DNA of 55,105 bases from a virus. The notes beneath the pieces are model-generated. The model made no database searches and was not told the origin of the DNA. It saw only the letters and a program-made list of their open reading frames with translations. Positions 9,109 to 39,802 of the stretch are shown piece after piece. Each line of letters opens with the position of its first letter. The first letter of the stretch is position 1. Location: the UHGV virus genome UHGV-0308106. The stretch is one strand, 5' to 3'. The position numbers and the translations under genes are program-made.

Positions 9109-9504
9109 CTACTCACCATCCCCCTTAATCCGCCGTCCCATGTACTTGGCGTACAGTTCATCGAGTTCTTTCAACCGTAGAGATACGATCCGCAACATGT
9201 TCTGTTGTTCTTCTTCGTTTGGGAGTTGATTATAGAGTTCCAACAGTCTCCGTTCGTCGTGTCTCAAACCGTCCTTAGCATCCACGTCCTGACCTAGAAC
9301 CCACTCAAGACTTACGCCTAGCGCATCGGCAAGTTTTATTGCTGAGCTTTTTCCTATCGCTCCTCTGACAAACCAGTTGTTGACTGATTGTGCGCTCACA
9401 CCACAGATTCTCGCTATATCCGCTTTGGATATGCGCTTCTTCTCGATGATTTCATTTAACCGCCGAACCTGCGGGTTATCTGTTTGGTGTGTGTTTTTTC
9501 TCAT
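9109..9504 (-). CDS. prophage repressor (HTH, CI/RacR-like role)
   Basis: 131-aa ORF; N-terminal HTH ISKADIARICGVSAQSVNNW; divergent from Cro-like gene across operator palindromes. Confidence 0.65.
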   Translation of the reverse strand: MRKNTHQTDNPQVRRLNEIIEKKRISKADIARICGVSAQSVNNWFVRGAIGKSSAIKLADALGVSLEWVLGQDVDAKDGLRHDERRLLELYNQLPNEEEQQNMLRIVSLRLKELDELYAKYMGRRIKGDGE

Positions 9505-12063: not shown

Positions 12064-12303
12064 ATGAACATAACAATCCGTGAGCAGGTGCTGGCAGCCC
12101 TGCGCAACAACCCAGGGTTGAACAACGCCAAACTGGCAGGGCTTCCCGGAGTGGTACATCATCGATCAGGACTATCGGGGGCAGAAGTACGCGAAGGACA
12201 AGCAGGTTGCGCGTTGTGGCAACGCAGTTCCGCCGCCATTCGCCGAGGCACTGGTGAGGGCTAATTTACCGGAGCTTTGTCAGCAGAAAGAGATCGCAGC
12301 TTA
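12064..12303 (+). pseudogene. DNA methyltransferase remnant (frame-disrupted)
   Basis: ATG at 12064 opens frame MNITIREQVLAAL; a different frame carries the C-terminal tail ARCGNAVPPPFAEALVRANLPELCQQKEIAA ending at 12303; no intact long ORF. Confidence 0.3.
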
Positions 12304-12403
12304 ATGTCCGAGTTTCAGAACATGGTGTAACAAATCCTGCTACTTCAATGACGTAGATTCAAACCTGATATAATTAGGCTCTTCACAACACGAGGAGCCT
12401 AAA

Positions 12404-12640
12404 ATGCACCATTACATGATCCCTATCAACGGAACTGTTCACCTGATCAAGACTGACTCTCTAATCCCTGAAGGGACTGAGTATAGCTTTGAAGGAGAAA
12501 GTCTAATCTGCGCTCATGCCACTTTTAAATCTGGGACGTATGGCTTCCTGATACCAAAGGGAAATCAGTTGAATAGAGAGCATGCGTTCTGGCATGTAAG
12601 TGGAATTCACCCTAATCCCCTGGGAATGGATAAATCGTAA
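12404..12640 (+). CDS. hypothetical protein (moron)
   Basis: 78-aa ORF in AT-rich insert; AGGAGCC SD and TATAAT-like element upstream; flanked by duplicated methyltransferase 3-prime ends. Confidence 0.4.
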   Translation: MHHYMIPINGTVHLIKTDSLIPEGTEYSFEGESLICAHATFKSGTYGFLIPKGNQLNREHAFWHVSGIHPNPLGMDKS

Positions 12641-12910
12641 TCCATAATATGCATGCCATCGTCCTGAACATACGGTGGCATGCATCCGGCACTACAACAG
12701 AAACGTTAAAGTGCAAACAATACAATTCGAGCAATATTCAACCTGTCACAGATGGCGAATACCACCGCCATTTCGTGCATTCTGTGGTTTCTATTACCCA
12801 TTGCGTTAATGCTGTCCAATCATCAGCTCGCTGAGGCGCTGGTTAGGGCTAACCTACAGGAGCTTTGTCAGCAGAAACAAATAGCGGCGTAATAAAACAT
12901 CGCTAATTCA

Positions 12911-12938
12911 ACCCGCTACGGCGGGTTTTCTTTTTTTA
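12911..12938 (+). terminator. intrinsic terminator
   Basis: acccgc-tacg-gcgggt hairpin followed by ttttcttttttt. Confidence 0.6.
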
Positions 12939-12996
12939 CTACTGACAGAAAATTAACAATTTGTGCTCTTAAAGCGTTGATCATTTCCGCGCATAG

Positions 12997-13019
12997 GTAT
13001 ACTGTATAAAAACACAGTA
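12997..13019 (+). promoter_or_regulatory. LexA box overlapping -10 of dinI promoter
   Basis: TACTGTATAAAAACACAGTA (13000-13019) fits CTGT-N8-ACAG; TATACT -10 at 12997-13002. Confidence 0.7.
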
Positions 13020-13037
13020 AATGCAATGGGGGCCATT

Positions 13038-13271
13038 ATGAAAGTTGAATTAACCATTGATCGCATGAAAGAACTTCCTAAAGGCGCAGTACCAGCACTG
13101 GAGAAAGAACTGCTTAAGCGCCTGAATGATCACTATGACAATTGCAGGCTCACAATCCGCCGTGCCGGGGCCGATGGGTTAAGTGTTTTTGGTGGTGACA
13201 AGGACGATAAAAAGAAAATTGAATCAATCCTCCAGGATACCTGGGAAAGCGCTGACGACTGGTTTTATTAG
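13038..13271 (+). CDS. dinI: DinI-family damage-inducible protein
   Basis: MKVELTIDRMKELPKGAV...ILQDTWESADDWFY, DinI-like throughout; alternative start 13026. Confidence 0.85.
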   Translation: MKVELTIDRMKELPKGAVPALEKELLKRLNDHYDNCRLTIRRAGADGLSVFGGDKDDKKKIESILQDTWESADDWFY

Positions 13272-13388
13272 AATTGCGCTTAAGGCTGGCGCGCATTTTT
13301 CAGAATACCGCAATTTGCGTAACCCTCTGATGCTGCTGCCGACAATCTTTAATCGCGTCTGTTAGTCGCTCGAAGGGAGAACATAAAT

Positions 13389-13637
13389 GTGAGTGATTCA
13401 GCTTTGCAAACGTCAGAAGACAACTGGTATGACATTGTAAGAAGGTCTGACGGCTGCGTGGTGTTTAGCTTTCCTTCATCGGGCAGGCATCTAATTTATC
13501 GCGTCAATGGCATGGTTTCTATGCGGCCTTTGCTGGATGATGAAGAGGTCTTTACTCCTAATGGTTTTATGCAGTTTATTCACCGTCTCGGCTACCGGGT
13601 AACCCCACCTTCTGATAATATGAAATCAACGGTCTGA
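13389..13637 (+). CDS. hypothetical protein
   Basis: 82-aa ORF, GTG start. Confidence 0.35.
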   Translation: MSDSALQTSEDNWYDIVRRSDGCVVFSFPSSGRHLIYRVNGMVSMRPLLDDEEVFTPNGFMQFIHRLGYRVTPPSDNMKSTV

Positions 13638-13671
13638 ACAACCGTAACCTACTGCGCCACGGAGAGAAACC

Positions 13672-14271
13672 ATGGCGCACGAACTACAACTCATCAAGCA
13701 TTCCTCAGGAATCCTGATCCCCGCTACGCCGGAGACCAGTGATTTACTGCAATCAAAAATCAAACTCGGCTCCGTACTGGTGGCTGAGTTCCGGCAGGTA
13801 CGCAACCCGGCCTTTCACCGTCGTTTCTTCGCGTTACTCAATCTCGGTTTCGAATACTGGGAACCCACCGGCGGGGCAATCTCCTCCAACGAACGCAAGC
13901 TGGTAACCGGCTATGCCAAGTTCCTTGCCTCATTCGCGGGAAGTGAAGCAGCACTCCTGGATGCTGCTGAGCAATATCTGGACCGCATCGCCGATAAGCG
14001 TACTGGTAGCATCTGCGCCTGTAAGTCATTCGATGCATATCGTGCATGGGTCACTATTGAGTCCGGCCATTACGACGCCATTCAGCTGCCTGACGGCACC
14101 CTCCGCAAACATCCCCGCAGTATCTCATTCGCAAATATGGATGAAACTGAGTTCCAGCAGCTGTACAAAGCCGCGCTCGATGTTCTGTGGCGATGGATAC
14201 TCTCCCGATCATTTCGCAGTTGTGAAGAGGCAGAAAACGCCGCCGCCCAGCTGATGAGCTTTGCGGGGTGA
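13672..14271 (+). CDS. nin-region protein (DUF1367/YbcN-like)
   Basis: 199-aa ORF; motif RNPAFHRRFFALLNLGFEYWEP; position upstream of ybcO-like and rusA. Confidence 0.45.
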   Translation: MAHELQLIKHSSGILIPATPETSDLLQSKIKLGSVLVAEFRQVRNPAFHRRFFALLNLGFEYWEPTGGAISSNERKLVTGYAKFLASFAGSEAALLDAAEQYLDRIADKRTGSICACKSFDAYRAWVTIESGHYDAIQLPDGTLRKHPRSISFANMDETEFQQLYKAALDVLWRWILSRSFRSCEEAENAAAQLMSFAG

Positions 14272-14477
14272 TGGCGATGAAATTTTCCTGGTTCCACCAT
14301 CACGAATGCACCACCGAACAGGCCGACGAGCTGGTGGAGAAATACCGGGCGCGCGGTGTAAAGACAGAGCGCAGCCTGAATCGCGACAACATCACCTGGA
14401 CCGTCAGCGCGCAATTGCCGGAAGGCGATAACGCGCCTCGCCCGAGCCGGGTATGGCAAAGCAAGGCGTGGGGGTGA
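14268..14477 (+). CDS. hypothetical nin-region protein
   Basis: 69-aa ORF, ATGA overlap with upstream gene. Confidence 0.35.
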   Translation: MMAMKFSWFHHHECTTEQADELVEKYRARGVKTERSLNRDNITWTVSAQLPEGDNAPRPSRVWQSKAWG

Positions 14478-14479
14478 GC

Positions 14480-14770
14480 ATGGCAAATTTACGCAAAGAG
14501 GCTCGTGGTCGTGATTGTCAGGTTCGAATTCCCGGCGTCTGCAACGGTAACCCGGAAACGTCTGTACTGGCGCACATTCGCCTGGCCGGGTTATGTGGCA
14601 CCGGAATCAAACCGCCTGATCTGATTGCCACCATTGCATGCTCTGCCTGTCACGACGAGATCGACCGCCGTACACATTTTGTCGATGCTGAGTATGCTAA
14701 AGAATGCGCGCTGGAAGGTATGGCGAGAACGCAGGTTATCTGGCTGAAAGAGGGGGTAATCAAGGCGTGA
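14480..14770 (+). CDS. YbcO-like Cys-rich putative nuclease (DUF1364)
   Basis: [32 protein letters not shown]...CSACHDEID; overlaps rusA GTG start. Confidence 0.55.
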
Positions 14771-15129
14771 ATACTTACAACATCACATTGCCCTGGCCGC
14801 CGAGCAATAACCGCTACTACCGCCATAATCGCGGGCGCACGCACATCAGCGCAGAAGGGCAGGCATACCGCGATAACGTCGCCCGAATCATTAAAAACGC
14901 AATGCTGGATATCGGTCTGGCTATGCCTGTGAAAATCCGCATTGAGTGCCACATGCCGGATCGCCGTCGCCGTGACCTGGATAATCTGCAAAAGGCCGCT
15001 TTTGACGCACTCACCAAAGCAGGTTTCTGGCTGGACGATGCTCAGGTCGTTGATTATCGCGTTGTGAAGATGCCCGTTACCAAAGGTGGAAAGCTGGAAC
15101 TGACAATCACCGGGCTGGAGGCCGTATGA
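14767..15129 (+). CDS. rusA: Holliday junction resolvase RusA
   Basis: [24 protein letters not shown]...[18 protein letters not shown] near-identical to E. coli RusA as recalled; GTG start. Confidence 0.9.
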
Positions 15130-15262
15130 CATTTGAATCCTGTTTTTCCGATCACCTCCGCGTTCGCTGGCAGCGGCTTCGCTTATACCACTTTCCCGGC
15201 TCTGTGCTAACGGACTACCGGATACTGAAGAATTACGTGAAAACTTATGCTGGAGAAGCGCT

Positions 15263-16045
15263 ATGAACCTTGAAAACACAGTGAAATACCACTTCGCTAA
15301 ATCCACACTGATTAGCGATTCTCCGCGCGCTACCGCCTCCGATTCACTGACCGGTACCGACATAATGGCTGCCATGGGCATGACGCAGGAACGCGCCGCA
15401 ATGGGTTACAGCGCCTTCCTCGGCAAGATGGGCATAAGCAATAACGACCGGGATCGGGCGATCGGTCTGCTGGCTGAGTACGCGATGACAAAATGCGACA
15501 AGGTTGCCGCACTGCGTAAGCTCGGTGCCGCGGTTAAACCTCAGGTGATGCACCAGTTGGCCACCTTCGCTTTTGAGGACTATTCCCGCAGCGCTGCCAG
15601 CGTGAAGCAGTGCGATTGTTGTGACGGTCAGGGCTTCATTGAGGCTGACGTGTTTACCAATAAATTCCGTAAGCCAGAAGGGAAAATGACCGTGTCCGGG
15701 ATGGTGAAGGTCAAAGAATCCATCAAAGTGCTATGCAAAAAGTGTAATGGCTCTGGTGTGGTTAGTGCTTCTTGCAGTGATTGCCATGGGCGCGGCAAGG
15801 CAGTGAACCAGGCTCTTACTGAGAAACAGGGCGTTCCTGTTCTGGCTGACTGTAAGCGCTGCGGAGGGCGTGGGTATGAACGACTTCCGTCGACTGAAGC
15901 CTATGCTGCTGTATGCCAGATTACTGACGCCATTAGCCTGGACACCTGGAAAAAGTCTGTTAAGCCATTCTACGACCTGCTGATCACGAAATTTGATATC
16001 GAAGAGTCCTGGGCCGAAAAACAGCTTAAGCAGATAACGCGGTAA
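15263..16045 (+). CDS. late-gene antitermination protein Q-like
   Basis: 260-aa ORF after rusA and before lysis genes; multiple CxxC pairs (CDCCDGQG, CKKCNGSG, CSDCHGRG, CKRCGGRG). Confidence 0.6.
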   Translation: MNLENTVKYHFAKSTLISDSPRATASDSLTGTDIMAAMGMTQERAAMGYSAFLGKMGISNNDRDRAIGLLAEYAMTKCDKVAALRKLGAAVKPQVMHQLATFAFEDYSRSAASVKQCDCCDGQGFIEADVFTNKFRKPEGKMTVSGMVKVKESIKVLCKKCNGSGVVSASCSDCHGRGKAVNQALTEKQGVPVLADCKRCGGRGYERLPSTEAYAAVCQITDAISLDTWKKSVKPFYDLLITKFDIEESWAEKQLKQITR

Positions 16046-16143
16046 CGCCTATAGCGATAGCCTATGATTTTGTCTTGGGCTATTTACTTTTCCCGAATCT
16101 GTGTTAATTTTGTCCCAACGATGGGTTAATGCCTTCGTTTCAA

Positions 16144-20658: not shown

Positions 20659-22281
20659 ATGCCTCTGCCGTTTGAATTCGATTTCAGAAACCCTGATTAC
20701 CAGATGGTTTTTGAATGGCGGATGGAGCGCTTACAGCGCATTCGCCAGAACCCTGAAATGCTGCCAGCACTAAAGCAGTTTTACCGCACCAACCCGGCAC
20801 AGTTCATCATCGACTGGGGTATGACTACTGACCCGCGTAACATCGATTATGGCCTGCCGGTCACAATCCCTTTTCTGCTGTTCCCGAAACAGGAAGAGTG
20901 GATTCACTGGATCATTGAGCGGCGCGAACGACTGGAGAACGGCATCACCGAAAAGAGCCGCGAAATGGGGCTCAGTTGGACCGCGATCGGGCTGGCCTGC
21001 TCGCTTTGTCTCTTCAACAAAGAAATGGTTATCGGTTTCGGCTCCCGTAAAGAGGAATACGTCGACAGCACCGGTGACCCGAAGGCGCTGTTCTGGAAGG
21101 CGCGAAAGTTCGTGGAAACACTGCCCATCGAGTTTCGTGGTTCGTGGGACGAGAAGAAGCATGCGCCGTATATGCGCGTTGAGTTTCCAGATACTGGCGC
21201 GGTTATCAAAGGCGAGGCTGGCGACAATATCGGACGTGGTGACCGTACCACGCTCTACCTGGTGGATGAAGCTGCATTCCTCCAGCGTCCTCTGTTGATT
21301 GATGCGGCGCTGTCGCAAACCACCCGTTGCCGTATTGACCTGAGCTCGGTTAATGGCATGGCGAACCCGTTCGCGCAGAAGCGCCACGGCGGAAAAATAC
21401 CAGTATTCACGTTCCACTGGCGAGATGACCCGCGCAAGGATGAAGAGTGGTATCGCAGGGAGTGCGAGAAAATCGACAATCCGGTGGTGGTGGCGCAGGA
21501 ACTTGACCTGAACTACAGCGCATCTGCGGAAGGCGTCCTGATCCCGTCCGACTGGGTACAGGCTGCCGTCGACGCGCATATCAAACTTGGTATTCAGCCA
21601 ACGGGCAAGCGACTGGGCGCGATGGACGTCGCCGACGAAGGCCGGGACAAAAATGCCTTTTCGACCCGTCACGGCTTCCTTCTGGAGAACGTGCGTGAAT
21701 GGTCCGGCGTTGGCAGCGACATTTACCAGTCTGTTGAGAAGGTCTTCGGCTTTTGCGAACAGGACAACCTCGAAGAGTTTCGCTTCGACGAGGACGGCCT
21801 GGGTGCTGGCGTTCGCGGCGATGCGCGCGCCATCAACGAACTGCGTTACGCAGCGCGCCGACCGTCAATACTCGCCACACCGTTTCGTGGTAGCGGCGCG
21901 GTATTTGATCCGGACGATGAAGCGGTGCGCGGGGACAACGGACAGGCCGCACGCCTGAACAAGGACTTCTTCGCCAACGCCAAGGCCCAGAGCTGGTGGT
22001 GGCTACGCAAGCTTTTCCAGAACACCTATCGCGCCGTGGTTGAGGGCATGGCCTACAACCCGGACGAAATCATCTCAATCAGCAGCGCCATGGCGAGCAA
22101 AGACAAACTCATCATTGAGCTGTCGCAGCCGACCTACTCCATTAATGGCGTGGGGAAAATCGTTGTTGATAAACAGCCTGATGGCACCAAGTCGCCGAAC
22201 CTCGCCGACTCGGTGATGATCAGCTACGCGCCAATGAATTCAGCCCTGAACATCTGGGAGCTGCTAGGGAGACAGGCCTGA
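20659..22281 (+). CDS. terminase large subunit
   Basis: About 540-aa from ATG 20659; ATPase and nuclease-type motifs ([18 protein letters not shown]); followed by portal. Confidence 0.85.
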
Positions 22282-23750
22282 TGGCACGAAACAAACAAGC
22301 CCTGCGGCGAACGGCACAGGCCACCGCTGACGGCTACGAGAACTTCGTCGCCCGCGTTGGGATGCAGACGCCTAACCAGCATTCAGCATCGACCTACCGG
22401 GCGAACTTCACCAGCCGCAACCGCATGCTGGTGGAATGGTCATATCGCGGTTCGTGGGTTATCGGTGAAGCGGTCGACGCTATCCCGGACGATATGACCC
22501 GAAAGGGCATTCGCATCACTTCGGAGATTGACGCCAAAGACCGTGGCACCCTCGAAGCGCAACTGGATGAGTTGCAGATCTGGGATGCGCTGAACGACGT
22601 GCTGAAATGGTCGCGCCTCTACGGCGGCGCGGTCGGCTTCATCATGATCGAGGGGCAAGCACCAATGACCCCGCTGCGACTCGAAACCATTGGCGAGGGC
22701 AAGTTTAAGGGCATTCTCCCGCTCGACCGCTGGATGATTAACCCGGTGCTGACACGCCGCATTAAAGAGATGGGGCCGGACCTCGGCAAGCCTGAGTTTT
22801 ACGACGTGGTGACCACCGCAACGGGCATTCCGGCCTGGCGCATCCATCACAGCCGCCTGATCCGCTTTGATGGCGTCACGCTGCCATTCCAGCAGAAGAT
22901 GACCGAAAACGAATGGGGAATGTCGGTTGTAGAGCGTATCTGGGATCGGCTTACTGCGTTCGATAGCGCTACTGTCGGCGCGGCGCAGCTGGTCTATAAA
23001 GCGCATCTGCGTACCTATAGCGTGGAGAAGTTGCGCGAGCTTATCGCGCTTGGAGGCCCGGCGTTCGAAGCGTTGCTGAAGAACATCGACCTGATCCGCC
23101 AGTTCCAGAGCAATGAAGGTATGACGCTCATGGACTCGCGGGATAAGTTCGAAACCCACCAGTACAGCTTTAGTGGTCTGGATGACATTCTTTCGCAGTT
23201 TGCTGAGCAGATCAGCGGTGCCGTTGGTATCCCGCTGGTACGCCTGTTCGGTCAATCCCCGAAAGGCTTCTCTACTGGTGATGCAGACCTCGCCAACTAT
23301 TACGACCGGGTGAGCTCATTGCAGGAGCGCCGCTTACGACTGCCGATGCGCCGGATACTGGACATTATGCACCGCTCGGAACTCGGAAAGCCGCTGCCGG
23401 ACGATTTCACGTTTGAGTTTAACCCGCTATGGCAAATGTCAGACGTTGACCGATCAACGGTGGCCGTAAACACCACCAACGCGATCAGTACCGCGCTGGG
23501 CGACGGATTGATGACGCGTAAGGCGGCGATGACCGACCTGCGCGAAAACTCTGACGTCACCGGCATCGGGGCATCCATTACCGACGAGGATATCGAGAAT
23601 GCCGAAGACGAAGCGCCGCCAGGCATCGGCGAACTTGGCGACAAACCGCCAGAGCCGCCAGGCGGAGATCCGATATCGAACGAGCCTACGGCAGATAGCG
23701 CGGGCGGTCGGGGATATCGTAAATGGGCGCTACGATGGTTCAAACGATAG
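22281..23750 (+). CDS. portal protein
   Basis: 489-aa ORF immediately after large terminase (ATGA overlap); acidic C-terminus. Confidence 0.8.
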   Translation: MARNKQALRRTAQATADGYENFVARVGMQTPNQHSASTYRANFTSRNRMLVEWSYRGSWVIGEAVDAIPDDMTRKGIRITSEIDAKDRGTLEAQLDELQIWDALNDVLKWSRLYGGAVGFIMIEGQAPMTPLRLETIGEGKFKGILPLDRWMINPVLTRRIKEMGPDLGKPEFYDVVTTATGIPAWRIHHSRLIRFDGVTLPFQQKMTENEWGMSVVERIWDRLTAFDSATVGAAQLVYKAHLRTYSVEKLRELIALGGPAFEALLKNIDLIRQFQSNEGMTLMDSRDKFETHQYSFSGLDDILSQFAEQISGAVGIPLVRLFGQSPKGFSTGDADLANYYDRVSSLQERRLRLPMRRILDIMHRSELGKPLPDDFTFEFNPLWQMSDVDRSTVAVNTTNAISTALGDGLMTRKAAMTDLRENSDVTGIGASITDEDIENAEDEAPPGIGELGDKPPEPPGGDPISNEPTADSAGGRGYRKWALRWFKR

Positions 23751-24372
23751 CGTCACCGAAATAATGGATGCGCTGGAGCGCTACAGCGAAATCATCACCC
23801 CCTGGGCGACTAAGGTTGCTGAGAGCTTCACCGCCGACATTGCGCGCCAGAATGAAAAGCAGTGGCGTCAGCACAGCCGGAACATCAGCGCAGAGCTGCG
23901 CAACATGGTTGACCGCGCCCCGGTAGGCCAGGTGATGAAATCCATCGTTGCCGAGCAAATTAAGTACATTAAATCGCTGCCTCTTGAGGCCGCCGATCGG
24001 GTGTATGACATTCAGAACAAAGCCATCGAGGCTGTTGTGACTGGTGGCCGCGCTGAGCCATTCGCGAAAGAGATAGCTGCGTCCGGTGACGTGTCACGCT
24101 CGCGAGCGAACCTTATCGCCCGTACCGAGCTTGGACGCGCAACCGGCGCGCTCGATCAGGCGCGTGCGCTGTCAATCGGCTCGAATGGTTATATCTGGCG
24201 TACAGCCGAAGATGGCGACGTCCGGCATTCTCATCGGGAGATGGAAGGTAAGTTTGTCGAATGGGGCCGACCTCCAACGCTTGACGGTATGACCGGTCAC
24301 GCTGGTGAGCTGCCGAACTGCCGCTGTTACAAAGAAATCGTCTTCCCCAACCCTCATTCTTATCTCGCCTGA
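23599..24372 (+). CDS. head morphogenesis protein (Mu F-like)
   Basis: C-terminal region with RTELGRA and GELPNCRCY; start ambiguous (23599 overlaps portal; alternative ATG 23764). Confidence 0.65.
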   Translation: MPKTKRRQASANLATNRQSRQAEIRYRTSLRQIARAVGDIVNGRYDGSNDSVTEIMDALERYSEIITPWATKVAESFTADIARQNEKQWRQHSRNISAELRNMVDRAPVGQVMKSIVAEQIKYIKSLPLEAADRVYDIQNKAIEAVVTGGRAEPFAKEIAASGDVSRSRANLIARTELGRATGALDQARALSIGSNGYIWRTAEDGDVRHSHREMEGKFVEWGRPPTLDGMTGHAGELPNCRCYKEIVFPNPHSYLA

Positions 24373-24386
24373 ATCGCAGGTAAACC

Positions 24387-25619
24387 ATGAAATATTTTTT
24401 CAATACCCGGCTGGGGGAAACCCGCTATCAGCTGGCTGACGGCTCGCTGTTGTGTAAAGACGTGCCGATAGGTCGAACGGGTAAGCAGCTCTACGGCGCT
24501 GCCGATCTGCCAAACCTCAAACCCGACAAGCTCGGTGAGATAGTCGTAACGCGTTCTCCTGAGCAGGTATTCCATCCGGCCACGCTCGCCTCATTCGAAG
24601 GGATGAGCATCACGATCCTGCATCCTGAAGATGAAAACGGGAATGTGCGGCTGGTAAATCCCGAGAACTGGAAAGAGCTTGCGGTCGGGCATTTTCAGAA
24701 CGTTCGGCGCGGGACTGGTGACCAGTCTGATTTGATGCTGGCAGACCTTATCGTCAAAGACGAAAGCGCCATTCAGCTTATCGAAGATGGTCTGCGCGAA
24801 GTGTCGTGCGGCTATGACGCGGAGTACGAGCAGACCGAGCCAGGTAAAGCCGAGCAGGTCGATATTACCGGAAACCATGTGGCTCTTGTCCCTAAAGGCA
24901 GAGCCGGAAATCGTTGTGCAATTGGAGACAGAGACACAATGGCAAATCAAAAGAAAAGCTGGTGGACCCGCATGCGCACGGCCATCAAAACGGGTGACGC
25001 TGACACCATGAACGAACTGCTGGACTCTGCGCCAGCGGCGGTAACGGGTGACGAAGGGGATCTGCCGAGCGGCGTTAACCTCAACATTAACCTTTCACCG
25101 CAGCAACCATTGCCGGACAAAAAGCCGGAAATGGGCGGAGATCCAACCGGCGACGGCGAGGACGATATCAAAACCTTGCTCAAAGCCCTGCTGGCTAAGC
25201 TCGAAGGAACTGCGACGGGCGATAACGACAATAAGCCTGACGAAAAAGACAAAAAAGATCCGACCGGCGACGGCGAGGACGACGAAGAGGAAACCACGAT
25301 TACCGGTGACTCTGCCTATCGTGCCGAGGTTATCGTCCCGGGTATCGATCTGAGCCGTAAGGTGAAACCGACCGCGTTCAAACGTGATGTGCTGGCTGCC
25401 GCTGACAAAACACTGGTTCGCCAGGTTGTCGGTGATGCGGATATCCGCAAATTGCCCAAGCAATCGGTAGATATGGCGTTTAACGCCGTGTCAGAGATTG
25501 CCAAAGGGCGAAACACCCGCAGCACCACGGGCGATGCACAACGTCCAAATATGGGCATGACCAGCATCGCTTCCCTGAACAAACAAAACGCCGACTTCTG
25601 GTCTAACCGCAAAGGATAA
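24387..25619 (+). CDS. scaffold/protease-like head protein (DUF2213-like)
   Basis: 410-aa ORF; acidic repeats DPTGDGEDD x2; C-terminus TTGDA...NADFWSNRKG. Confidence 0.5.
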   Translation: MKYFFNTRLGETRYQLADGSLLCKDVPIGRTGKQLYGAADLPNLKPDKLGEIVVTRSPEQVFHPATLASFEGMSITILHPEDENGNVRLVNPENWKELAVGHFQNVRRGTGDQSDLMLADLIVKDESAIQLIEDGLREVSCGYDAEYEQTEPGKAEQVDITGNHVALVPKGRAGNRCAIGDRDTMANQKKSWWTRMRTAIKTGDADTMNELLDSAPAAVTGDEGDLPSGVNLNINLSPQQPLPDKKPEMGGDPTGDGEDDIKTLLKALLAKLEGTATGDNDNKPDEKDKKDPTGDGEDDEEETTITGDSAYRAEVIVPGIDLSRKVKPTAFKRDVLAAADKTLVRQVVGDADIRKLPKQSVDMAFNAVSEIAKGRNTRSTTGDAQRPNMGMTSIASLNKQNADFWSNRKG

Positions 25620-25833: not shown

Positions 25834-27063
25834 ATGATTGTTAGGCCACTAACTAACGTCGAAGTGAAAAGCGCGAAGGCACAGGGCAAGGATTTCAGTT
25901 TGCACGATGGTTTCGGTTTGTTGCTTTACATCACAAGCCGGGGCGGTAAGTCATGGCGTTTTCGGTATGTACACCCGGTAACGAAGAAGAGACAAACCTA
26001 TACCATTGGAAGATACCCGGAGTTTACTTTGTCCGAAGCGAGGGAGGAACGTTCGAAACTGCGCCGTATGGTAGCGCGGGGGATAGATCCGAACGAAGTC
26101 AAAAAAGATACCAGGAATGAACAGCGTAAAATGTACGCGCAGTCATTTCAGGCCGTTGCCGATGAATGGCTAAAAATCAAGATTAAAGAAGGTGCGAGAA
26201 GCAACACGCTTGAATCGCACAATGTGACGTTGAAGCATCTTTCCACGATTTTTAGGCATACCACAGTACATAAAATAAACGCAGCCGATACTATTCAGGC
26301 TTTTAAACCTTTCAGGGAAAGGCCATCAACGCTTACGAAAATGGTTATTACCATCAACGCCATAATGGATTATGCGGTAAATATTGGGGTTATTGAGCAC
26401 AACCCACTATCGAAAATTGGTAAAGCATTCCCGGCTGAAAAAAACGAACCAAGAGCGACTTTACAGAAAGAGCGGTTGCCAGAATTTTTAAGCGCATGGA
26501 ACGAGTTGAGCTTATGGGAGCCATCAAAGCTGGCATTATTATTTCAGATCATTACGATGGTCCGACCTTCGGAAGCTGGCGGCGCTCTCTGGAATGAGAT
26601 TGATTTTGATAATTCAATCTGGCAAATCCCTGCAAGCCGGATGAAAGGAAAGCGCCCCCACGTAGTCCCATTATCGAGCCAGGCTATAAACGTGCTTAAA
26701 GAGGCCGAAAAGTGGAAGCGCTGCGATTATGTTTTCCCCTCATGGCGAAAAGAAAATAAGCCGATCTCACGATGTGCGACTCAGGCCGGAATACACAAAA
26801 CGTCGTTTAAAGGAATGATTGTTCCTCATGGGTTCAGGGCGTTGGCATCTACAGTTTTAAATGACGAGGGGTTCAACCCTGATGTGATTGAGGCTGCACT
26901 CGCTCACAAAAGCGCCGATGCGATTCGAAATGTTTATAACCGTAGCGACTATCTGGAAAAACGCCGGGTTTTAATGCAATGGTGGGGGGACTTTATCGAG
27001 GCCGCAGAGCGTGGAGAGATACTGGAGACCAGCGGCGATAAGGGCTTAAGGCTGGTTGTGTAG
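25834..27063 (+). CDS. int: tyrosine integrase (P4-type) of nested element
   Basis: 409-aa ORF; N-terminal arm-binding-like GKSWRFRYV; catalytic domain (HGFRALAST, AALAHKSADAIRNVYNR). Confidence 0.85.
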   Translation: MIVRPLTNVEVKSAKAQGKDFSLHDGFGLLLYITSRGGKSWRFRYVHPVTKKRQTYTIGRYPEFTLSEAREERSKLRRMVARGIDPNEVKKDTRNEQRKMYAQSFQAVADEWLKIKIKEGARSNTLESHNVTLKHLSTIFRHTTVHKINAADTIQAFKPFRERPSTLTKMVITINAIMDYAVNIGVIEHNPLSKIGKAFPAEKNEPRATLQKERLPEFLSAWNELSLWEPSKLALLFQIITMVRPSEAGGALWNEIDFDNSIWQIPASRMKGKRPHVVPLSSQAINVLKEAEKWKRCDYVFPSWRKENKPISRCATQAGIHKTSFKGMIVPHGFRALASTVLNDEGFNPDVIEAALAHKSADAIRNVYNRSDYLEKRRVLMQWWGDFIEAAERGEILETSGDKGLRLVV

Positions 27064-27104
27064 GGCATATCCATTTTTGGATAATTATGATTTCAAACGG
27101 GAAT

Positions 27105-27129
27105 AGCTGGCTTTAAGCCAGCTTTTTTT
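27105..27129 (+). terminator. intrinsic terminator after integrase
   Basis: agctggc-tttaa-gccagct hairpin followed by tttttt. Confidence 0.55.
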
Positions 27130-27206
27130 ATGCCCAAAGCTAACCGGAATGCGTTTTTTTTTATTCAAATCATATATAATCATATCGAATATATACGGAG
27201 GTTTTT

Positions 27207-27419
27207 ATGTCTATAAGTGGCGGTGATATTCTGCTAAAAGGTGAAGTGAAAGCGCGTTTACGTTATCGCTCAGACTCGTCATTCTACGAGTTTCTAAAAG
27301 ACGAGAAAAACGGCTTTCCAATGCCTTTTAAAGTCGGTGGGCGTAACTGCTGGTATGAAGATGAAGTAGATGCCTGGATAAGTAAACAAAGCGAGAAGCG
27401 CGGGATCTGCACATCATGA
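27207..27419 (+). CDS. AlpA-family transcriptional regulator
   Basis: 70-aa ORF; GGAGG SD; short HTH protein (FPMPFKVGGRNCWYEDEVDAWI) adjacent to integrase. Confidence 0.65.
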   Translation: MSISGGDILLKGEVKARLRYRSDSSFYEFLKDEKNGFPMPFKVGGRNCWYEDEVDAWISKQSEKRGICTS

Positions 27420-27558
27420 ATGTTTGCAGATTTGGGAAAGAGGGCTTGCTAACGGCTATCCGGGCAAGCCCTTTTTATTGTCAGTGGTGGGGATCTGTAA
27501 CTTACGGCCACCAGCGCCGGTAATCACCTTCTGGCTGGTGGCTTCACTGGCATGGCTA

Positions 27559-27918
27559 TTACGCTGCCGCATCATCTGAATTGAATTCAATGTGAATTCG
27601 GTCATAAGGCAGCACGATTTTTTCGCCGTCTTTGTCCAGAACGCCGCCGTTAAGCAGTGACTGAACATCGTTATAAACACCGCGAAAATCACGGTTAACA
27701 ATGCGTGATAGTTCGCGGATTGATACGGCTTGCGCTCCCTCCATCGCTTTGATGATCTGCCAGCGGTTAGGGGCAAGCATAGTTTTAGCCAGTTGTTCTA
27801 CAGTGGGAAAAATCAGTTCGGAACCGATGAAATCCCCGTTCATTGCGCGGGAGGCGTCGGACATTGCCACCCGGAAAGCATCATCAACGGTCATTACTCT
27901 GACGGTCAGCACTCGCAT
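27559..27918 (-). CDS. winged-HTH protein (antitoxin/regulator-like)
   Basis: 119-aa ORF, GGAGG SD, 4-bp gap after upstream 93-aa gene; HTH-like AVSIRELSRIVNRDFRGVYNDV. Confidence 0.5.
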   Translation of the reverse strand: MRVLTVRVMTVDDAFRVAMSDASRAMNGDFIGSELIFPTVEQLAKTMLAPNRWQIIKAMEGAQAVSIRELSRIVNRDFRGVYNDVQSLLNGGVLDKDGEKIVLPYDRIHIEFNSDDAAA

Positions 27919-27922
27919 GGTA

Positions 27923-28204
27923 TTACCTCCTCAACAGGTTTATGTCAGCCTGAAAGCTGGCGATCAGGTTCTCAATGGTGGTGAATGTCACCGGATATTC
28001 CCGATCATGGATGTGTTTGTGGTCGCCTTTGCCACGTTCGTTGTCGTAACGCATGACGCACTCGCCATCTACGATGTAGGCCAGACTGTACTTGTATTGG
28101 TGCTGGCTACCTAAAATTGCCGGGTCTACTTCCAGAATGCGGATCGAGGCGAAAGCGTTATCAGCTATCTGGATACGGCGGTTCATCAACTCAACAGCGG
28201 GCAT
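27923..28204 (-). CDS. small protein (toxin-like partner, family not recognised)
   Basis: 93-aa ORF, AAGGAG SD, operator palindromes immediately upstream. Confidence 0.45.
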   Translation of the reverse strand: MPAVELMNRRIQIADNAFASIRILEVDPAILGSQHQYKYSLAYIVDGECVMRYDNERGKGDHKHIHDREYPVTFTTIENLIASFQADINLLRR

Positions 28205-28220
28205 TGGCTTATCTCCTTGT

Positions 28221-28270
28221 TGATGTAAATAATAACATCACAAACGAATGATGTAAATGATTACATCATT
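28221..28270. promoter_or_regulatory. inverted-repeat operators upstream of two-gene cassette
   Basis: tgatgt-aaataata-acatca (28221-28240) and aatgatgtaa-atga-ttacatcatt (28247-28270). Confidence 0.45.
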
Positions 28271-28412
28271 GCGGGTAAGTTACCGATGGCATGAACGGTT
28301 CGCTGCTGGTGGCTCTCGATCTCCTGAAAGCTCAGGATATTGCCGGGCATGATTTTAATCGGCGGACTTTTCGGCCGATTGAATACGGGCAGTTCGCTCC
28401 CTGTGTATCGGC

Positions 28413-28552
28413 TTCGTTTCTGGATGATTCGCGTTTCGTTTCTGGTGAATTCGCATTCGCAATTTGTCCGCGAAGCCTTATCAGGCCTGATTTGAGCGGT
28501 GCTCTCTCTTTGCGAATTCGCAGTTCCATTTCGCACTTTGATTCGCAGTTTT
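28413..28552. repeat. cluster of palindromic GAATTCGC/GATTCGC motifs
   Basis: Tandem 20-mers ttcgtttctggatgattcgc (28413-28432) and ttcgtttctggtgaattcgc (28435-28454); further gcgaattcgca and gattcgca copies to 28552; overlapping ORFs look non-coding. Confidence 0.4.
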
Positions 28553-28713
28553 CAAATGTTCCCATTCCGGGGACACGGACGATTAGACAGGTGTTACAAA
28601 CGTTGGTGGTGAAATATCTTCTTGCGCTGGCGGGCACGGTGTGGTTATGATTATTTCGCACCTCACAAAACGGGTGCCGGGCGTGAGAACCCGGATAAGG
28701 TCAAAGGCGACAA

Positions 28714-28737
28714 CAGACGCCTATCGCGTCTTTTTTT
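28714..28737 (+). terminator. intrinsic terminator in leader upstream of icd-like gene
   Basis: agacgc-ctatc-gcgtct stem followed by tttttttt. Confidence 0.4.
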
Positions 28738-28931
28738 TGTCGCAATGTCAGTACCCCCATATGTAGCGGCGCAGATCCGCGCACAGAATCAATGGTGGCT
28801 CTGGCAGGGCAGCTTTCGGGCTGGCCGGTTCCCTTTGACGCCGGTATTCTCACCCCTGTCAGTGTCACCACCCTTTAGAGCGTGAGAACTCAGGTGGTGG
28901 CTCCTTAAATTAGTCAAAGGAGATCATCATC

Positions 28932-29129
28932 ATGATGACTATCCCTACCCTCGCTCAAACAAAATTCACCTGGCGCTTTCTCGCGCTGAATCGCCACGAT
29001 AAAAAAGCCAAACCTTGCCGTCTGTCCGTTGAGGCTGCGACCGAACGCGAAGCCCGCCGCATCCTTGCGCCGCACTTTATTTTGTCTCTGGCCGCACGTC
29101 TGCCAGTGCCGGAGGTGCGTCATGTTTAA
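28932..29129 (+). CDS. Icd-like small protein (P4 family)
   Basis: 65-aa; KFTWRFLALNRHD...RLSVEAATEREARRILAPHFILSLAARLP resembles Icd/Ash proteins as recalled. Confidence 0.45.
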   Translation: MMTIPTLAQTKFTWRFLALNRHDKKAKPCRLSVEAATEREARRILAPHFILSLAARLPVPEVRHV

Positions 29130-30000
29130 CCTCCAGACACTGACAGCTAAAGCCCGTGAGCTGCGCGGCAACGTCGTTAAAGCGGCGAGCACAAAGGGAA
29201 GTCGCACCATGACTCCTGTCTATGACCGTGACGAGCAGCGCAAGCTACGCGAGCGCATCCAGCAGACACAGCCCGATTGGGTGTTGCTCTGGTGGGATAT
29301 TGCGACCGTAACCGGCTGGCGTACCAGCGACGTTTGCAACCTGCGCTATTCCTGCGTCAATTGGGAAACGGGGCAGGCGACAATTATCGTTGCCAAGCAG
29401 ACCAAAGCCGCCGAAGCGCGGGCAACCCGCAAAGGTATTGAAATTGTGCGCCAGCAGCGCAAGGACGCCGCGCGGCTCGCCGCTGACCATATCGCCTACA
29501 TGAAGTGGGATAGTATCGGTTGTGACGAACTGGCCGCCGATATGAACGACGAGGAACAGGCGATTGTGTTCGGGCTGGTGGCAAAGGCTGACGTCAAGCA
29601 CGACACCAAACAGTTACCGCCCGGCATTATCAAGCGGCTGCGTGACCGTCAGGATCGGAATCTGGTGGAGGACGACCTGGTATTTTCACGCTCTCAAATC
29701 GAAAGTAACCGTTGTCAACGTCTGGAAGGTAGCGTTACTCGCCAAACCATCTGGCGCAAACTTCATGGCGTCATGGCGTGGTTTACCCGTTTCATTAACG
29801 CTAAATTGCGCCTGAGCGCGTACTCAAGCCGAAAAATAGCAGCCTTTAATCTTATGTCCGCAGGTGGCGAACAGGGATTATTGGTGGCTTCTGAAATGCT
29901 GGGGCATAGCAACCCGGCGATAACTCGCACTTACCTTCAATTAGGCAGCAAAGCCGCCGCTATCCAGTCCCGTTTAGCAATGGAGGTGTGCCATGCGTAA
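29122..30000 (+). CDS. tyrosine recombinase-like protein (catalytic domain only)
   Basis: 292-aa from ATG 29122 (GGAGG SD); WDIATVTGWRTSDVCNL and C-terminal LGHSNPAITRTYLQ; no N-terminal core-binding domain. Confidence 0.55.
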   Translation: MFNLQTLTAKARELRGNVVKAASTKGSRTMTPVYDRDEQRKLRERIQQTQPDWVLLWWDIATVTGWRTSDVCNLRYSCVNWETGQATIIVAKQTKAAEARATRKGIEIVRQQRKDAARLAADHIAYMKWDSIGCDELAADMNDEEQAIVFGLVAKADVKHDTKQLPPGIIKRLRDRQDRNLVEDDLVFSRSQIESNRCQRLEGSVTRQTIWRKLHGVMAWFTRFINAKLRLSAYSSRKIAAFNLMSAGGEQGLLVASEMLGHSNPAITRTYLQLGSKAAAIQSRLAMEVCHA

Positions 30001-30172
30001 TCTCTTTCATATCACTGGCTACGCCGTCAATAAACGCGGCCTGACAGTCGGTTTTAGCTATCTCATCGACGCCGAGGACGCCATGCAGGCAAAAGTTAAT
30101 GCCATTGCTGAGGCGAAAGACGATGAACTCACCCACGTATCTATTGCCCGTATTCTGGAGGTGGCAGCATGA
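29993..30172 (+). CDS. hypothetical small protein
   Basis: 59-aa ORF not in track; GGAGG SD; coupled to neighbours. Confidence 0.35.
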   Translation: MRNLFHITGYAVNKRGLTVGFSYLIDAEDAMQAKVNAIAEAKDDELTHVSIARILEVAA

Positions 30173-30381
30173 GCAAAGTATCCCTGGCCGATTCAACCTG
30201 CCGTATCCAACAGGCGCAGGAAGTCCTGTCTCTCTGGCTTGAGGCGACGAATAAAAACGATAGCGGCACGGCTAAATTAATCGGCGCAATCATTTCCCTT
30301 CTGGATGGTATCCCCGAATTGATGGATTCAGTAGAGGATGAATTGGCTGGCATGGACTTAAAAGCGATGGATAAAGCATGA
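30169..30381 (+). CDS. hypothetical protein
   Basis: 70-aa ORF, ATGA coupling on both sides. Confidence 0.4.
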   Translation: MSKVSLADSTCRIQQAQEVLSLWLEATNKNDSGTAKLIGAIISLLDGIPELMDSVEDELAGMDLKAMDKA

Positions 30382-31004
30382 GCAACGTAGAGAAATTCAC
30401 ACCGGGAAATGCCGACTTATTACACGCCGAAGCCACACCGCACGGCGTAAACATCATGACCCGCAATGATGCCGGGATGTATGAGCATGTAGCCATTATC
30501 ACCTATGAGAGCGCTGTAAGCCGTCTGGATGCGGGAGAGTACGACGATACGCCAGATATCGGCTACGCCATTCATTTTGCCGTTGCTGATGGCGGGGCGC
30601 GTGGCTGGTTCGACTTTACCGCGCAGCATGAAGTAACCATGTGGCGCTGGCTGATTGCTGCGACGTTCGTTTCTGAGATGAAGCGCGAAAACGGCACAAC
30701 CTCCGTCACGGAGGCTGACGGCACAACATCGCAGGTGGCGATTTACTCCAATGGTAATGCGGGCATGGTGATTTACCCGTTTGCTGAACGGCTGGCGATG
30801 GCGAACAACATCGAGGGCGCAATGATTGAGCGATACGGCGTCGAACAGGGTACGGAAAAAGCCATTGTGTTTTATCAGGCCATGCTGGATACGGAGCGCG
30901 GCGAGCTTACCCCGTTCGGACGTGAAACGCTGGCAGAGCTACACGATCACTTCATTGCTGATCTGGATGAAAACGGCTGGCCTGAAATGCCAGCGGCGCA
31001 CTGA
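30378..31004 (+). CDS. hypothetical protein
   Basis: 208-aa ORF upstream of primase in same operon. Confidence 0.45.
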   Translation: MSNVEKFTPGNADLLHAEATPHGVNIMTRNDAGMYEHVAIITYESAVSRLDAGEYDDTPDIGYAIHFAVADGGARGWFDFTAQHEVTMWRWLIAATFVSEMKRENGTTSVTEADGTTSQVAIYSNGNAGMVIYPFAERLAMANNIEGAMIERYGVEQGTEKAIVFYQAMLDTERGELTPFGRETLAELHDHFIADLDENGWPEMPAAH

Positions 31005-31016
31005 GGGAGCGACACA

Positions 31017-38860: not shown

Positions 38861-39802
38861 ATGATTACTTTTGATCAGGCAACCGTAGATAGCTCCGGTG
38901 CCTTTCTCATCGGGGAGCTGGAGCGACTCGACCAGACGCTGAACCTGCCTCTGGTGGGGTACACCTGGACCCGAGATATTCAACTGCGTGAAGACGTGTC
39001 TATCGCAGATGACATTTCCAGCTGGACGAATACCAGCTTCGCCGCTGCGGGTACTGGTGCAAATCCGAATGGTAAAAACTGGGTAGGCAAAGACTCCACC
39101 GCTATTGCTGGCGTGAACGTGGATATCAGCAAAGACGGCAATCCACTGAACCTCTGGGGTATGGAACTGGGCTGGACCGTTGTAGAGCTGGCAGCTGCTC
39201 AGCAGGTAGGCCGCCCGATTGATACCCAGAAGTACGACGGGATGCAGCTCAAATGGCAGATGGACAACGACGAGCAGGTTTACATCGGTGATGACGCACT
39301 CGGCCTGAAAGGTCTGGCAAACCTCGTCGGTGTGACGCTGAACAACGCGCCGAAGACCTGGGCGAACTCAACCAACGACGAGATCCTCGATAGCGTGAAC
39401 AGCATTCTGTCTAATGCCTGGGCAGCATCCGGTTATTCCATCGTGCCTTCTGATCTGCGCATTCCGCCAGAGCAGTATTCACTGCTGGCGAGCCGTAAGG
39501 TTTCCGAAGCGGGTAACCAGTCACTGCTGACCTATCTGGCTGTGAACACTATCGCTTTCCACCAGAACGGCGTTCCGCTTGAAATCAAAGCGGTCAAATG
39601 GCTGAAAGGGCGTGGGGTTGGCGGTAAAGACCGTATGATCGCCTACACCAACGACAAGAAATACGTGCGCTATCCGCTGGTGCCGTTGCAGAGCGTTCCT
39701 GTCCAGTATCGCGGTCTGTATCAGATTGCGACCTACTACGGCAAGCTCGGTGCGGTTGAGCCAGTGTACAAAGAAACCCTGTCCTACGTGGACGGTATCT
39801 GA
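38861..39802 (+). CDS. major capsid protein
   Basis: 313-aa ORF in head module; size, position and composition typical of coat proteins. Confidence 0.55.
   Translation: MITFDQATVDSSGAFLIGELERLDQTLNLPLVGYTWTRDIQLREDVSIADDISSWTNTSFAAAGTGANPNGKNWVGKDSTAIAGVNVDISKDGNPLNLWGMELGWTVVELAAAQQVGRPIDTQKYDGMQLKWQMDNDEQVYIGDDALGLKGLANLVGVTLNNAPKTWANSTNDEILDSVNSILSNAWAASGYSIVPSDLRIPPEQYSLLASRKVSEAGNQSLLTYLAVNTIAFHQNGVPLEIKAVKWLKGRGVGGKDRMIAYTNDKKYVRYPLVPLQSVPVQYRGLYQIATYYGKLGAVEPVYKETLSYVDGI

Follow-up and report, generated by a model that had tools for sequence, protein, structure and literature searches.

A LexA (SOS) box at positions 13000–13019 of the window (the whole 55,105-nucleotide stretch of DNA analyzed here) is probably the operator of a Gifsy-1-type SOS operon consisting of dinI, a gfoA-like antirepressor gene and irsA. 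We give this reading, which builds on the anatomy of the locus, a probability of roughly 0.8. The box would thus be the SOS input that induces a prophage with a non-cleavable repressor. An initial annotation had placed a consensus LexA box over the promoter of a DinI-like gene and had expected that gene to be SOS-induced from within the prophage. SOS induction of a prophage-borne dinI is supported here by homology and conservation, but the earlier reading understated the case: dinI is merely the first gene of a LexA-controlled operon, and the main function of the operon was missed. The mechanism itself was already worked out in 2011 (Lemire, Figueroa-Bossi & Bossi, PLoS Genet 2011, PMC3121763), and the window is a further member of this class that raises no new question. 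The elements of the proposed operon and its upstream region are as follows.

12910–12937, + strand: intrinsic terminator, an AACCCGC-TACG-GCGGGTT stem-loop (12910–12927) followed by a T-run (terminator scan and RNA fold)
12977–12982, + strand: candidate −35 element TTGATC, read from the sequence, with position and spacing as in Gifsy-1 and Gifsy-2 (TTGAAT in both) and in Citrobacter loci
12998–13005, + strand: putative −10 region, either TATACT (12998–13003) or TACTGT (13000–13005)
13000–13019, no strand assigned: LexA (SOS) box TACTGTATAAAAACACAGTA, window-unique and conserved in position
13028–13032, + strand: dinI Shine-Dalgarno sequence GGGGG, read from the sequence and homologous to the chromosomal dinI 5'UTR (caacagggggctattATG vs caatgggggccattATG)
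13038–13271, + strand: dinI homologue, 77 aa, first gene of the operon (Pfam PF06183, phrog_189, PDB 1GHH)
13272–13388, + strand: 117-nt leader from dinI to the antirepressor gene, with a weak hairpin and T-run (13275–13298) and a Shine-Dalgarno sequence AAGGGAG (13373–13379)
13389–13637, + strand: GTG-initiated 82-aa ORF, putative GfoA-type antirepressor homologue
13672–14271, + strand: irsA homologue (DUF1367; PHROG NinB/Orf-like), third gene of the operon (Pfam E 9e-93, phrog_319)

The box is the sole exact CTGT-N8-ACAG across the 55-kb window, where TACTGTATAAAAACACAGTA occurs once against an expectation of 0.00 from 100 shuffles. It has the exact CTGT/ACAG arms and TA flanks of the Enterobacteriaceae LexA operator and matches the classical consensus TACTGTATATATATACAGTA at 17/20 positions, with perfect arms and all three mismatches confined to the spacer. 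Scored with a symmetric position weight matrix (PWM), an approximate matrix built from 26 E. coli boxes described in the literature, the site reached 25.3 bits, compared with 10.5 bits for the runner-up in the window and a top score of 18.0 bits among 200 dinucleotide-preserving shuffles. On this approximate scale it outscores the recA, sulA, lexA and chromosomal dinI boxes of that set and ranks fifth among 27 scored sites, with a heterology-index-like value of ~2 (relative to the same sites). The consensus LexA box proposed earlier is hence real, and the PWM scoring suggested alongside it clearly separates the site from shuffled sequence. The last base of the box lies 19 bp upstream of the ATG at 13038, so the distance to the gene of about 20 bp given in the initial annotation was also correct.

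The promoter beneath the box is less canonical. From TTGATC, the spacer is 15 bp to TATACT and 17 bp to TACTGT, the latter matching the −10 consensus at just 3/6 positions, and a consensus promoter scan allowing 16–18 bp spacers detected no promoter in the region upstream of dinI. Both candidate −10 hexamers overlap the box, of which TATACT covers bases 1–4. The overlap between the box and TATACT reported previously therefore stands (12998–13003 vs 13000–13019), while TATACT as the −10 element itself remains a candidate, given its 15-bp spacer and the TACTGT alternative. In a group of related Enterobacter loci, by comparison, the promoter is canonical (TTGCAA-17-TATAAA) and abuts the box directly; in the window, Gifsy and Citrobacter group, the box lies 8 bp nearer the −35 element. 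Upstream, the terminator stem-loop (12910–12927) folds at −12.8 kcal/mol (z −4.4; 0/200 shuffles as good), and an equivalent terminator is present in Gifsy-2 (L002) and in a Gifsy-1-type Salmonella locus (L120). Judging from this anatomy, the terminator may insulate the LexA-controlled unit from upstream transcription. Terminator-like palindromes have been described as preceding the Gifsy LexA boxes "in all instances", and the equivalent terminator and operator elements were demonstrated to matter in Gifsy-2 (PMC3121763).

The gene behind the box encodes a genuine DinI homologue. The predicted protein matches the Pfam family profile PF06183 over its full length (E 3.8e-26; 91.6 bits vs a cut-off of 24.2) and aligns over residues 1–76 with the E. 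coli DinI structure 1GHH (E 9.5e-18). The C-terminal helix ILQxTWESADDWF, the acidic helix of the DinI family, is intact (ILQ(D/E)TWESADDWF in the 1GHH alignment), and the protein is ~66% identical to Gifsy-2 DinI. Translation likely starts at ATG 13038, which follows the GGGGG motif, rather than at ATG 13026 as called by the ORF finder. Together with these matches, the PWM score points to a high-affinity-type LexA operator over the candidate promoter of dinI in a lambdoid prophage. In Gifsy-1, -2 and -3, a single SOS box lies 19 bp from the ATG of each dinI gene, and nalidixic acid induces these genes 23.2-, 14.5- and 4.6-fold, respectively (PMC8072944). Moreover, mitomycin C leads to accumulation of the Gifsy-2 DinI, GfoA and GftA proteins (PMC3121763).

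The layout is the same at the chromosomal dinI of E. coli K-12, where a LexA box lies 19–20 bp before the ATG and the 5'UTR, ribosome-binding site and protein are homologous. The prophage dinI thus appears to retain the ancestral operator, which the phage would use to drive an antirepressor. The two loci also differ. Chromosomal dinI is monocistronic with no downstream antirepressor, its −10 element TATAAA lies inside the box at a 17-bp spacer from TTGTCA, and its box ACCTGTATAAATAACCAGTA scores 23.0 bits vs 25.3 bits in the window with the approximate PWM.

The second gene of the unit carries most of the argument. The 82-aa ORF is 93% identical (76/82) to the corresponding ORF of L120, in which the published sequence of the gfoA cloning primer pp866 (GTAATTCAGCTTTGCAA) is found without mismatch. 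In the window ORF, the gfoA primers align at the two ends, pp866 with one mismatch and pp867 (as its reverse complement) with three. The ORF occupies the gftA/gfoA slot between dinI and irsA, and a non-ATG start (GTG here, TTG in Gifsy-1) with a strong Shine-Dalgarno sequence is conserved in the antirepressor gene. GfoA, GftA and GfhA bind repressors and release them from DNA; in the GfoA/GfoR and GftA/GftR pairs, antirepressor expression suffices for induction, and GfoA inactivates two heteroimmune repressors (PMC3121763). A gfoA::mCherry reporter was responsive to ciprofloxacin (PMC12626290).

Similarity of the 82-aa protein to other families was slight. BLASTP showed no similarity to Gifsy-2 GftA (E 0.98), and the two belong to different PHROG families (phrog_340 for the window ORF vs phrog_4847 for GftA). 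An hhalign comparison of the ORF family with GftA gave a weak colinear match (54% probability, E 1.3e-4), which fits the published distant relation of GfoA and GfhA to GftA (PMC3121763). Pfam searches of the ORF returned nothing, and PHROGs returned families of "unknown function" alone. Its AlphaFold2 model is mediocre (pLDDT 67, pTM 0.39; four strands and a helix) and Foldseek found nothing in the PDB (best E 2.0), so we draw no structural inference for this protein. Rem of the Qin prophage was considered as a relative of the ORF family and rejected (hhalign probability 0.2%). The public records examined list the antirepressor homologue as a "hypothetical protein". Downstream, the irsA homologue and Gifsy-2 STM1020 share phrog_319, and the mEp237 record flags the similarity of its DUF1367 gene to STM1020. 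An irsA homologue comes after the antirepressor gene in almost every related locus.

We then compared 28 genome loci from other species (L004–L031), each encoding a relative of the 82-aa protein and including representatives of Citrobacter, Enterobacter, Raoultella, Atlantibacter and Siccibacter. An upstream dinI match was found at 21 of these, with a 22.6–27.7-bit box ending 17–21 bp ahead of where the match begins. Seven loci were without a dinI match by tblastn; six of them had a 19.6–29.0-bit box ~150–330 bp upstream of the gfoA-like gene, so LexA control appears independent of the presence of dinI. In one of the six (L031), the sequence after the box (agagggaataATGaaaaatgagttacctattgatc) resembles a diverged dinI start, and counting it brings the number with dinI to 22/28. 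The seventh is a 3.6-kb contig from which the box is absent too. The box was the top PWM site in each 12-kb locus with the exception of L022, which has a stronger second site further downstream, and its CTGT/ACAG arms were invariant across loci while the spacer and flanks varied. A 19.3–27.5-bit box was likewise present in all of the viral contigs analyzed (80/80), with its last base 19–20 bp before the dinI ATG in 79 and 36 bp before it in one.

It is unlikely that the box controls a monocistronic dinI "moron" enclosed by two terminators, with the 82-aa ORF expressed from early phage transcription and not by LexA. Such an arrangement is suggested by the terminator-like hairpin and T-run (13275–13298) after dinI and by the resemblance of dinI, box and 5'UTR to a captured chromosomal dinI unit. 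The hairpin, however, is no better than those of shuffled sequences (−8.6 kcal/mol, z −0.34), and in Gifsy-2 transcription passes through the identical sequence, induction there depending on the promoter before dinI (PMC3121763). A scan between dinI and the 82-aa ORF found no internal promoter that could serve the antirepressor gene, and the six loci with a box upstream of a gfoA-like gene but no dinI match also argue against a unit built around dinI. Furthermore, replacing the segment from the terminator to the dinI AUG with PBAD in Gifsy-2 made induction arabinose-dependent and abolished the response to mitomycin C (PMC3121763). Given the weak hairpin, the Gifsy-2 PBAD result and the lack of an intervening promoter, dinI and the antirepressor gene are likely co-transcribed, perhaps with some attenuation, as the hairpin and T-run could lower read-through into the antirepressor gene.

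The primary sequence of the leader is conserved across genera, and in Gifsy-2 despite gftA being unrelated to gfoA; it is missing from four loci (L021, L023, L028 and L029). A structured RNA was rejected as an explanation on the evidence at hand (no Rfam match at E ≤1, no covariation with a consensus of −5.8 kcal/mol, and a single-sequence fold z of 0.12 for the whole leader). A coding region was rejected as well: a 60-aa ORF (13183–13365) is open in Gifsy-2, but indels of 4 and 1 nt break the frame in the Enterobacter group. On the + strand, no intrinsic terminator was detected from 13293 to 16142, just past Q, and the genes between dinI and Q abut or overlap, so LexA-derepressed transcription might reach Q. 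The equivalent dinI-to-Q stretch of Gifsy-2 contained no intrinsic terminator except for one weak hairpin inside Q. A speculative and rather doubtful extension of the model is that the leader is an unrecognized control point, for example an attenuator or a site for Rho or another protein, and so determines the threshold for antirepressor synthesis, and that LexA derepression feeds Q directly. If so, transcription into Q would provide a repressor-independent SOS input for the late genes.

The proposed target of the antirepressor is encoded on the opposite strand.

9109–9504, − strand: prophage repressor, 131 aa, HTH-only (Pfam HTH_3 and Phage_CI_repr; similarity to GfoR)

This repressor and S. 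Typhimurium GfoR are 74% identical over 126 residues; we picked GfoR among the homologues of the window repressor by the N-terminus encoded in the gfoR primer (MKEKTHQIN). The C-terminus of GfoR expected from primer le145 fits no reading frame and was left unused. Identity to GftR and DicA is 26% and 30%, respectively. The cro (YdaS-type), cII (YdaT-type), O and P genes are divergently oriented from the repressor gene.

It is very unlikely that the prophage is induced in the manner of lambda, through RecA-stimulated self-cleavage of its repressor, with the operon merely tuning the host SOS response through DinI. DinI is a known modulator of the RecA filament (1GHH), and deletion of dinI left Gifsy induction unaffected (PMC3121763), so its role could be host-directed. 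Nonetheless, Peptidase_S24 is absent from the 131-aa repressor and from the other early-region ORFs tested (Pfam, E <0.01), and hence the system does not appear to be lambda-type. All 120 of the repressor relatives listed are HTH-only proteins of ~130 aa. We also found no S24 peptidase among the called genes of five Citrobacter, Klebsiella, Enterobacter and Lelliottia contexts, in which the repressor, where it lay inside the fetched stretch, was a short HTH protein. Gifsy repressors are short and uncleaved during induction, which was demonstrated for GfoR (PMC3121763). The remaining alternative is that the box is a relic without function or a palindrome formed by chance between genes in AT-rich DNA. 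The non-canonical promoter hexamers would fit this reading, but it is extremely unlikely, as 0/200 shuffles reach its score and invariant arms, variable spacers and a fixed distance to the ATG recur over >100 loci from many genera.

Additional clues to the pairing of antirepressor and repressor came from an alignment of four repressors that accompany GfoA-like genes (from the window, mEp237 and one locus each of Citrobacter and Klebsiella). Identity among them is 76–98% in the C-terminal half, compared with 48–65% in the HTH half, where a near-identical Citrobacter copy is the exception. GftR, the partner of the unrelated GftA, shows 26% and 31% identity in the two halves. A conserved C-terminal half with a variable HTH is the pattern expected if the antirepressor recognizes the C-terminal half, and it fits the action of GfoA on two heteroimmune repressors. 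The antirepressor may therefore contact this conserved half, although 74% repressor identity would not guarantee that a GfoA-type pairing has been retained. A window-type repressor was found within 6 kb of the gfoA-like gene at 4/28 loci (tblastn). Cargo genes in the 10-kb flanks often displace the immunity region farther off, and this count is thus not evidence against the pairing.

Under the preferred reading, the LexA-controlled Gifsy-type operon, induction would proceed as follows. In the lysogen, host LexA bound to the box would occlude the overlapping promoter, and the upstream terminator would exclude other transcription, both steps being suggested by the anatomy of the locus. Upon DNA damage, RecA would become active, LexA would cleave itself and the promoter would fire, so that DinI (a RecA-filament-binding modulator) and the 82-aa antirepressor would be made from one transcript. 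DinI might tune the activity of the RecA filament during induction. The antirepressor, given its 93% identity to the L120 protein and the 74% identity between the repressors, would bind the GfoR-type repressor (9109–9504) and strip it from its operators. Removal of the repressor would derepress the early operons and lead to prophage induction. As nothing would be destroyed, the switch should reverse once LexA is replenished, and the near-consensus box suggests tight repression and a high damage threshold.

Each structural element of this scheme has a counterpart in Salmonella. Gifsy induction requires a locus under LexA repression; its box adjoins a dinI homologue and follows the replication genes, and the operon runs from dinI through a small antirepressor gene that starts with a non-canonical codon to an irsA homologue (PMC3121763). 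The sequence features of this arrangement were all found in the window: a box and dinI after the replication genes, the terminator, a non-ATG antirepressor gene, irsA and a short repressor. The order of elements is shared with the dinI-gfoA(gfhA)-irsA operons of Gifsy-1 and Gifsy-3 in Salmonella Typhimurium ATCC14028, whose repressors are GfoR and GfhR (PMC3121763). L120 is a Salmonella chromosome locus encoding GfoR, with gfoR adjoining a parA homologue as in the construct names of the 2011 study (PMC3121763). Like the window, it has the terminator, dinI with the box ending 19 bp before its ATG, a leader (~116 vs 117 nt), the 82-aa ORF and a DUF1367 gene, and GfoR, like the window repressor, is a 131-aa, HTH-only protein. 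At L120 the promoter reads TTGAAT-15-TATACT, the box is TACTGTGTTTATATACAGTA and the 82-aa ORF is TTG-initiated. The window differs from Gifsy-1 and Gifsy-3 in its host (E. coli), its box spacer (ATAAAAAC vs GTTTATAT) and its GTG rather than TTG start; the cII analogue is YdaT-type in the window and Phage_CII-type in L120.

Similarity to the dinI-gftA-irsA operon of Gifsy-2 extends to the architecture, the TTGAxx-15-TATACT/box geometry and a near-identical leader. Unlike in the window, however, the Gifsy-2 antirepressor GftA belongs to another sequence family and GftR is only distantly similar (26%) to the window repressor. Hence, by sequence comparison, the window is the Gifsy-1 (GfoA/GfoR) subtype of the LexA/antirepressor module, with the functional steps carried over from the Salmonella homologues.

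More distant systems follow the same logic. In coliphage 186 (Tum) and phage N15 (AntC), a LexA-repressed antirepressor encoded outside the immunity region inactivates a non-cleavable repressor; the likeness is one of logic. Both 186 (P2-like) and N15 (a linear plasmid prophage) are phage types unrelated to that of the window. The C-terminal half of Tum is DinI-like (PMC3121763), but Tum is a fusion of an antirepressor part and a DinI-like part, arranged in the opposite order, an architecture that is not homologous to that of the window. In the cryptic Qin prophage of E. coli K-12, the small antirepressor Rem lifts repression by DicA, which is short and HTH-only (PMC10448788), as proposed for the pair in the window. 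DicA is a distant relative of the window repressor (30%), whereas Rem has no detectable relation to the window ORF. The signal inducing Rem was reported as unknown (PMC10448788), and CTGT-N8-ACAG was not seen in the ~200 bp upstream of rem that was read.

The surrounding genome is that of a lambdoid prophage or phage from E. coli related to phage mEp237.

449–1699: integrase

RecT and a 1,129-aa RecE-like exonuclease are encoded on the minus strand. The rightward genes after the repressor encode a YdaS-like cro, a YdaT-like cII, O and P, the last of which ends at 12062, upstream of the terminator and box. Downstream of the operon lie nin-type genes, Q, lysis genes and structural genes. A second integrase and a primase are located inside the structural-gene region; the prophage may thus be disrupted, and its derepression may fail to produce phage. 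The region from 12300 to 13700 is 99.5% identical to mEp237 and 100% identical to several E. coli chromosomes. It was matched in 60 of 5,426 complete E. coli genomes (32 with ≥80% of the region), with no plasmid matches among these genomes. The antirepressor family occurs more widely, in ~500 IMG/VR contigs and in many enterobacterial genera, and the dinI-irsA region is reported to be conserved in Escherichia, Citrobacter, Klebsiella and Enterobacter prophages (PMC3121763).

In the mEp237 and E. coli RefSeq records examined, the box is unannotated and the repressor is given simply as an "HTH protein". With the 82-aa gene, box and repressor unrecognized, the mode of induction is invisible in those records. 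The value of the finding is in annotation and prediction, and the site would matter more to the phage than was first realized. The module predicts induction by SOS-triggering antibiotics via LexA and not via repressor cleavage, in a manner that would be reversible and dependent on a damage threshold. Moreover, co-resident prophages whose repressors are of the GfoR/GfhR type may also respond to the antirepressor in trans, as was shown in Salmonella.

Sequence surrounding the LexA-controlled dinI-antirepressor operon includes the following features in the window:

12340-12937, moron-like cassette directly upstream of the antirepressor operon
12369-12374, perfect TATAAT, where the phage mEp237 record annotates a promoter
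12404-12640, 78-aa ORF (phrog_30079, function unknown)
12752-12892, 46-aa hydrophobic ORF
12963-12972, GTGCTCTTAA motif, 4-5 bp upstream of the -35 candidate
13183-13365, 60-aa ORF with a GTG start, overlapping the dinI 3' end and continuing through the leader
13272-13388, 117-nt leader from dinI to the antirepressor gene
15263-16045, Q antiterminator gene

The leader is conserved in primary sequence across genera, being kept in Citrobacter, Enterobacter, Raoultella, Siccibacter and Mangrovibacter as well as in the Gifsy phages, with the invariant blocks TCGC..TGCGT, CCCT, GCTG, GCGTC and GTCGCT. This conservation persists also between operons whose antirepressor genes belong to unrelated families; four loci (L021, L023, L028 and L029) are without the leader. 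We looked in the leader for an Rfam match, covariation, a stable fold and a conserved ORF, and found none of these. The frame of the 60-aa ORF is open in Gifsy-2 too (L002 4966-5202), but judging from the sequences the ORF is probably not a gene, because indels in the Enterobacter group disrupt its frame.

Upstream of the -35 candidate, the GTGCTCTTAA motif recurs as GTGC(t/c)nTTAA at many otherwise diverged loci (Gifsy-2 and the antirepressor-encoding loci L004-L009, L014, L016 and L020-L023), and the upstream region of chromosomal dinI is without it. The motif could be an UP-like element or a site for a second regulator, or it could merely reflect shared ancestry. Farther upstream, the moron-like cassette runs from its TATAAT through the 78-aa and 46-aa ORFs to a strong terminator, which shields the antirepressor operon. 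Related prophages have a cargo hot spot in the interval from the replication genes to the dinI/antirepressor module (L117 2129-9183, L118 2391-9451 and L119 5331-9632), with SIR2-like, deaminase, Ham1-like, GGDEF, GntR/AraC-type and metallo-beta-lactamase-fold genes.

A second integrase and a primase are also encoded in the window, placed between portal/head genes and the major head protein gene:

22281-25619, portal/head genes
25834-27063, second integrase
31017-33797, 926-aa P4-alpha-like primase
38861-39802, major head protein gene

Region 25834-33797 resembles a satellite or an integrative element, either inserted into the morphogenesis region of the prophage or lying next to it; another reading is that two elements lie side by side in the window.

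The mEp237 repressor (L001 1119-1586) is annotated as starting at an in-frame ATG farther upstream, which gives it an N-terminal extension of ~25 aa, an arrangement reminiscent of the Gifsy-3 GfhR/GfhR* pair described by Lemire et al. (PMC3121763). Over the C-terminal half, this protein shares 76% identity with the window repressor, despite which the two phages should be heteroimmune. The label "prophage anti-repressor" in the mEp237 record is on a cro-like gene, not on the GfoA homologue.

In some related prophages the antirepressor gene is followed, 2.5-4.5 kb farther downstream, by another strong LexA-like box (L022 8561, 27.3 bits; L009 9252, 20.4 bits; L027 10541, 20.4 bits). No second strong box was found in the window, where the next-best site scores 10.5 bits (53971). 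On the + strand from just past dinI to just past Q (13293-16142), we found no terminator-like sites, and the genes between dinI and Q abut or overlap. The dinI-to-Q stretch of Gifsy-2 (L002) is likewise terminator-free, except for one weak hairpin within Q. The LexA-controlled transcript might thus reach Q.
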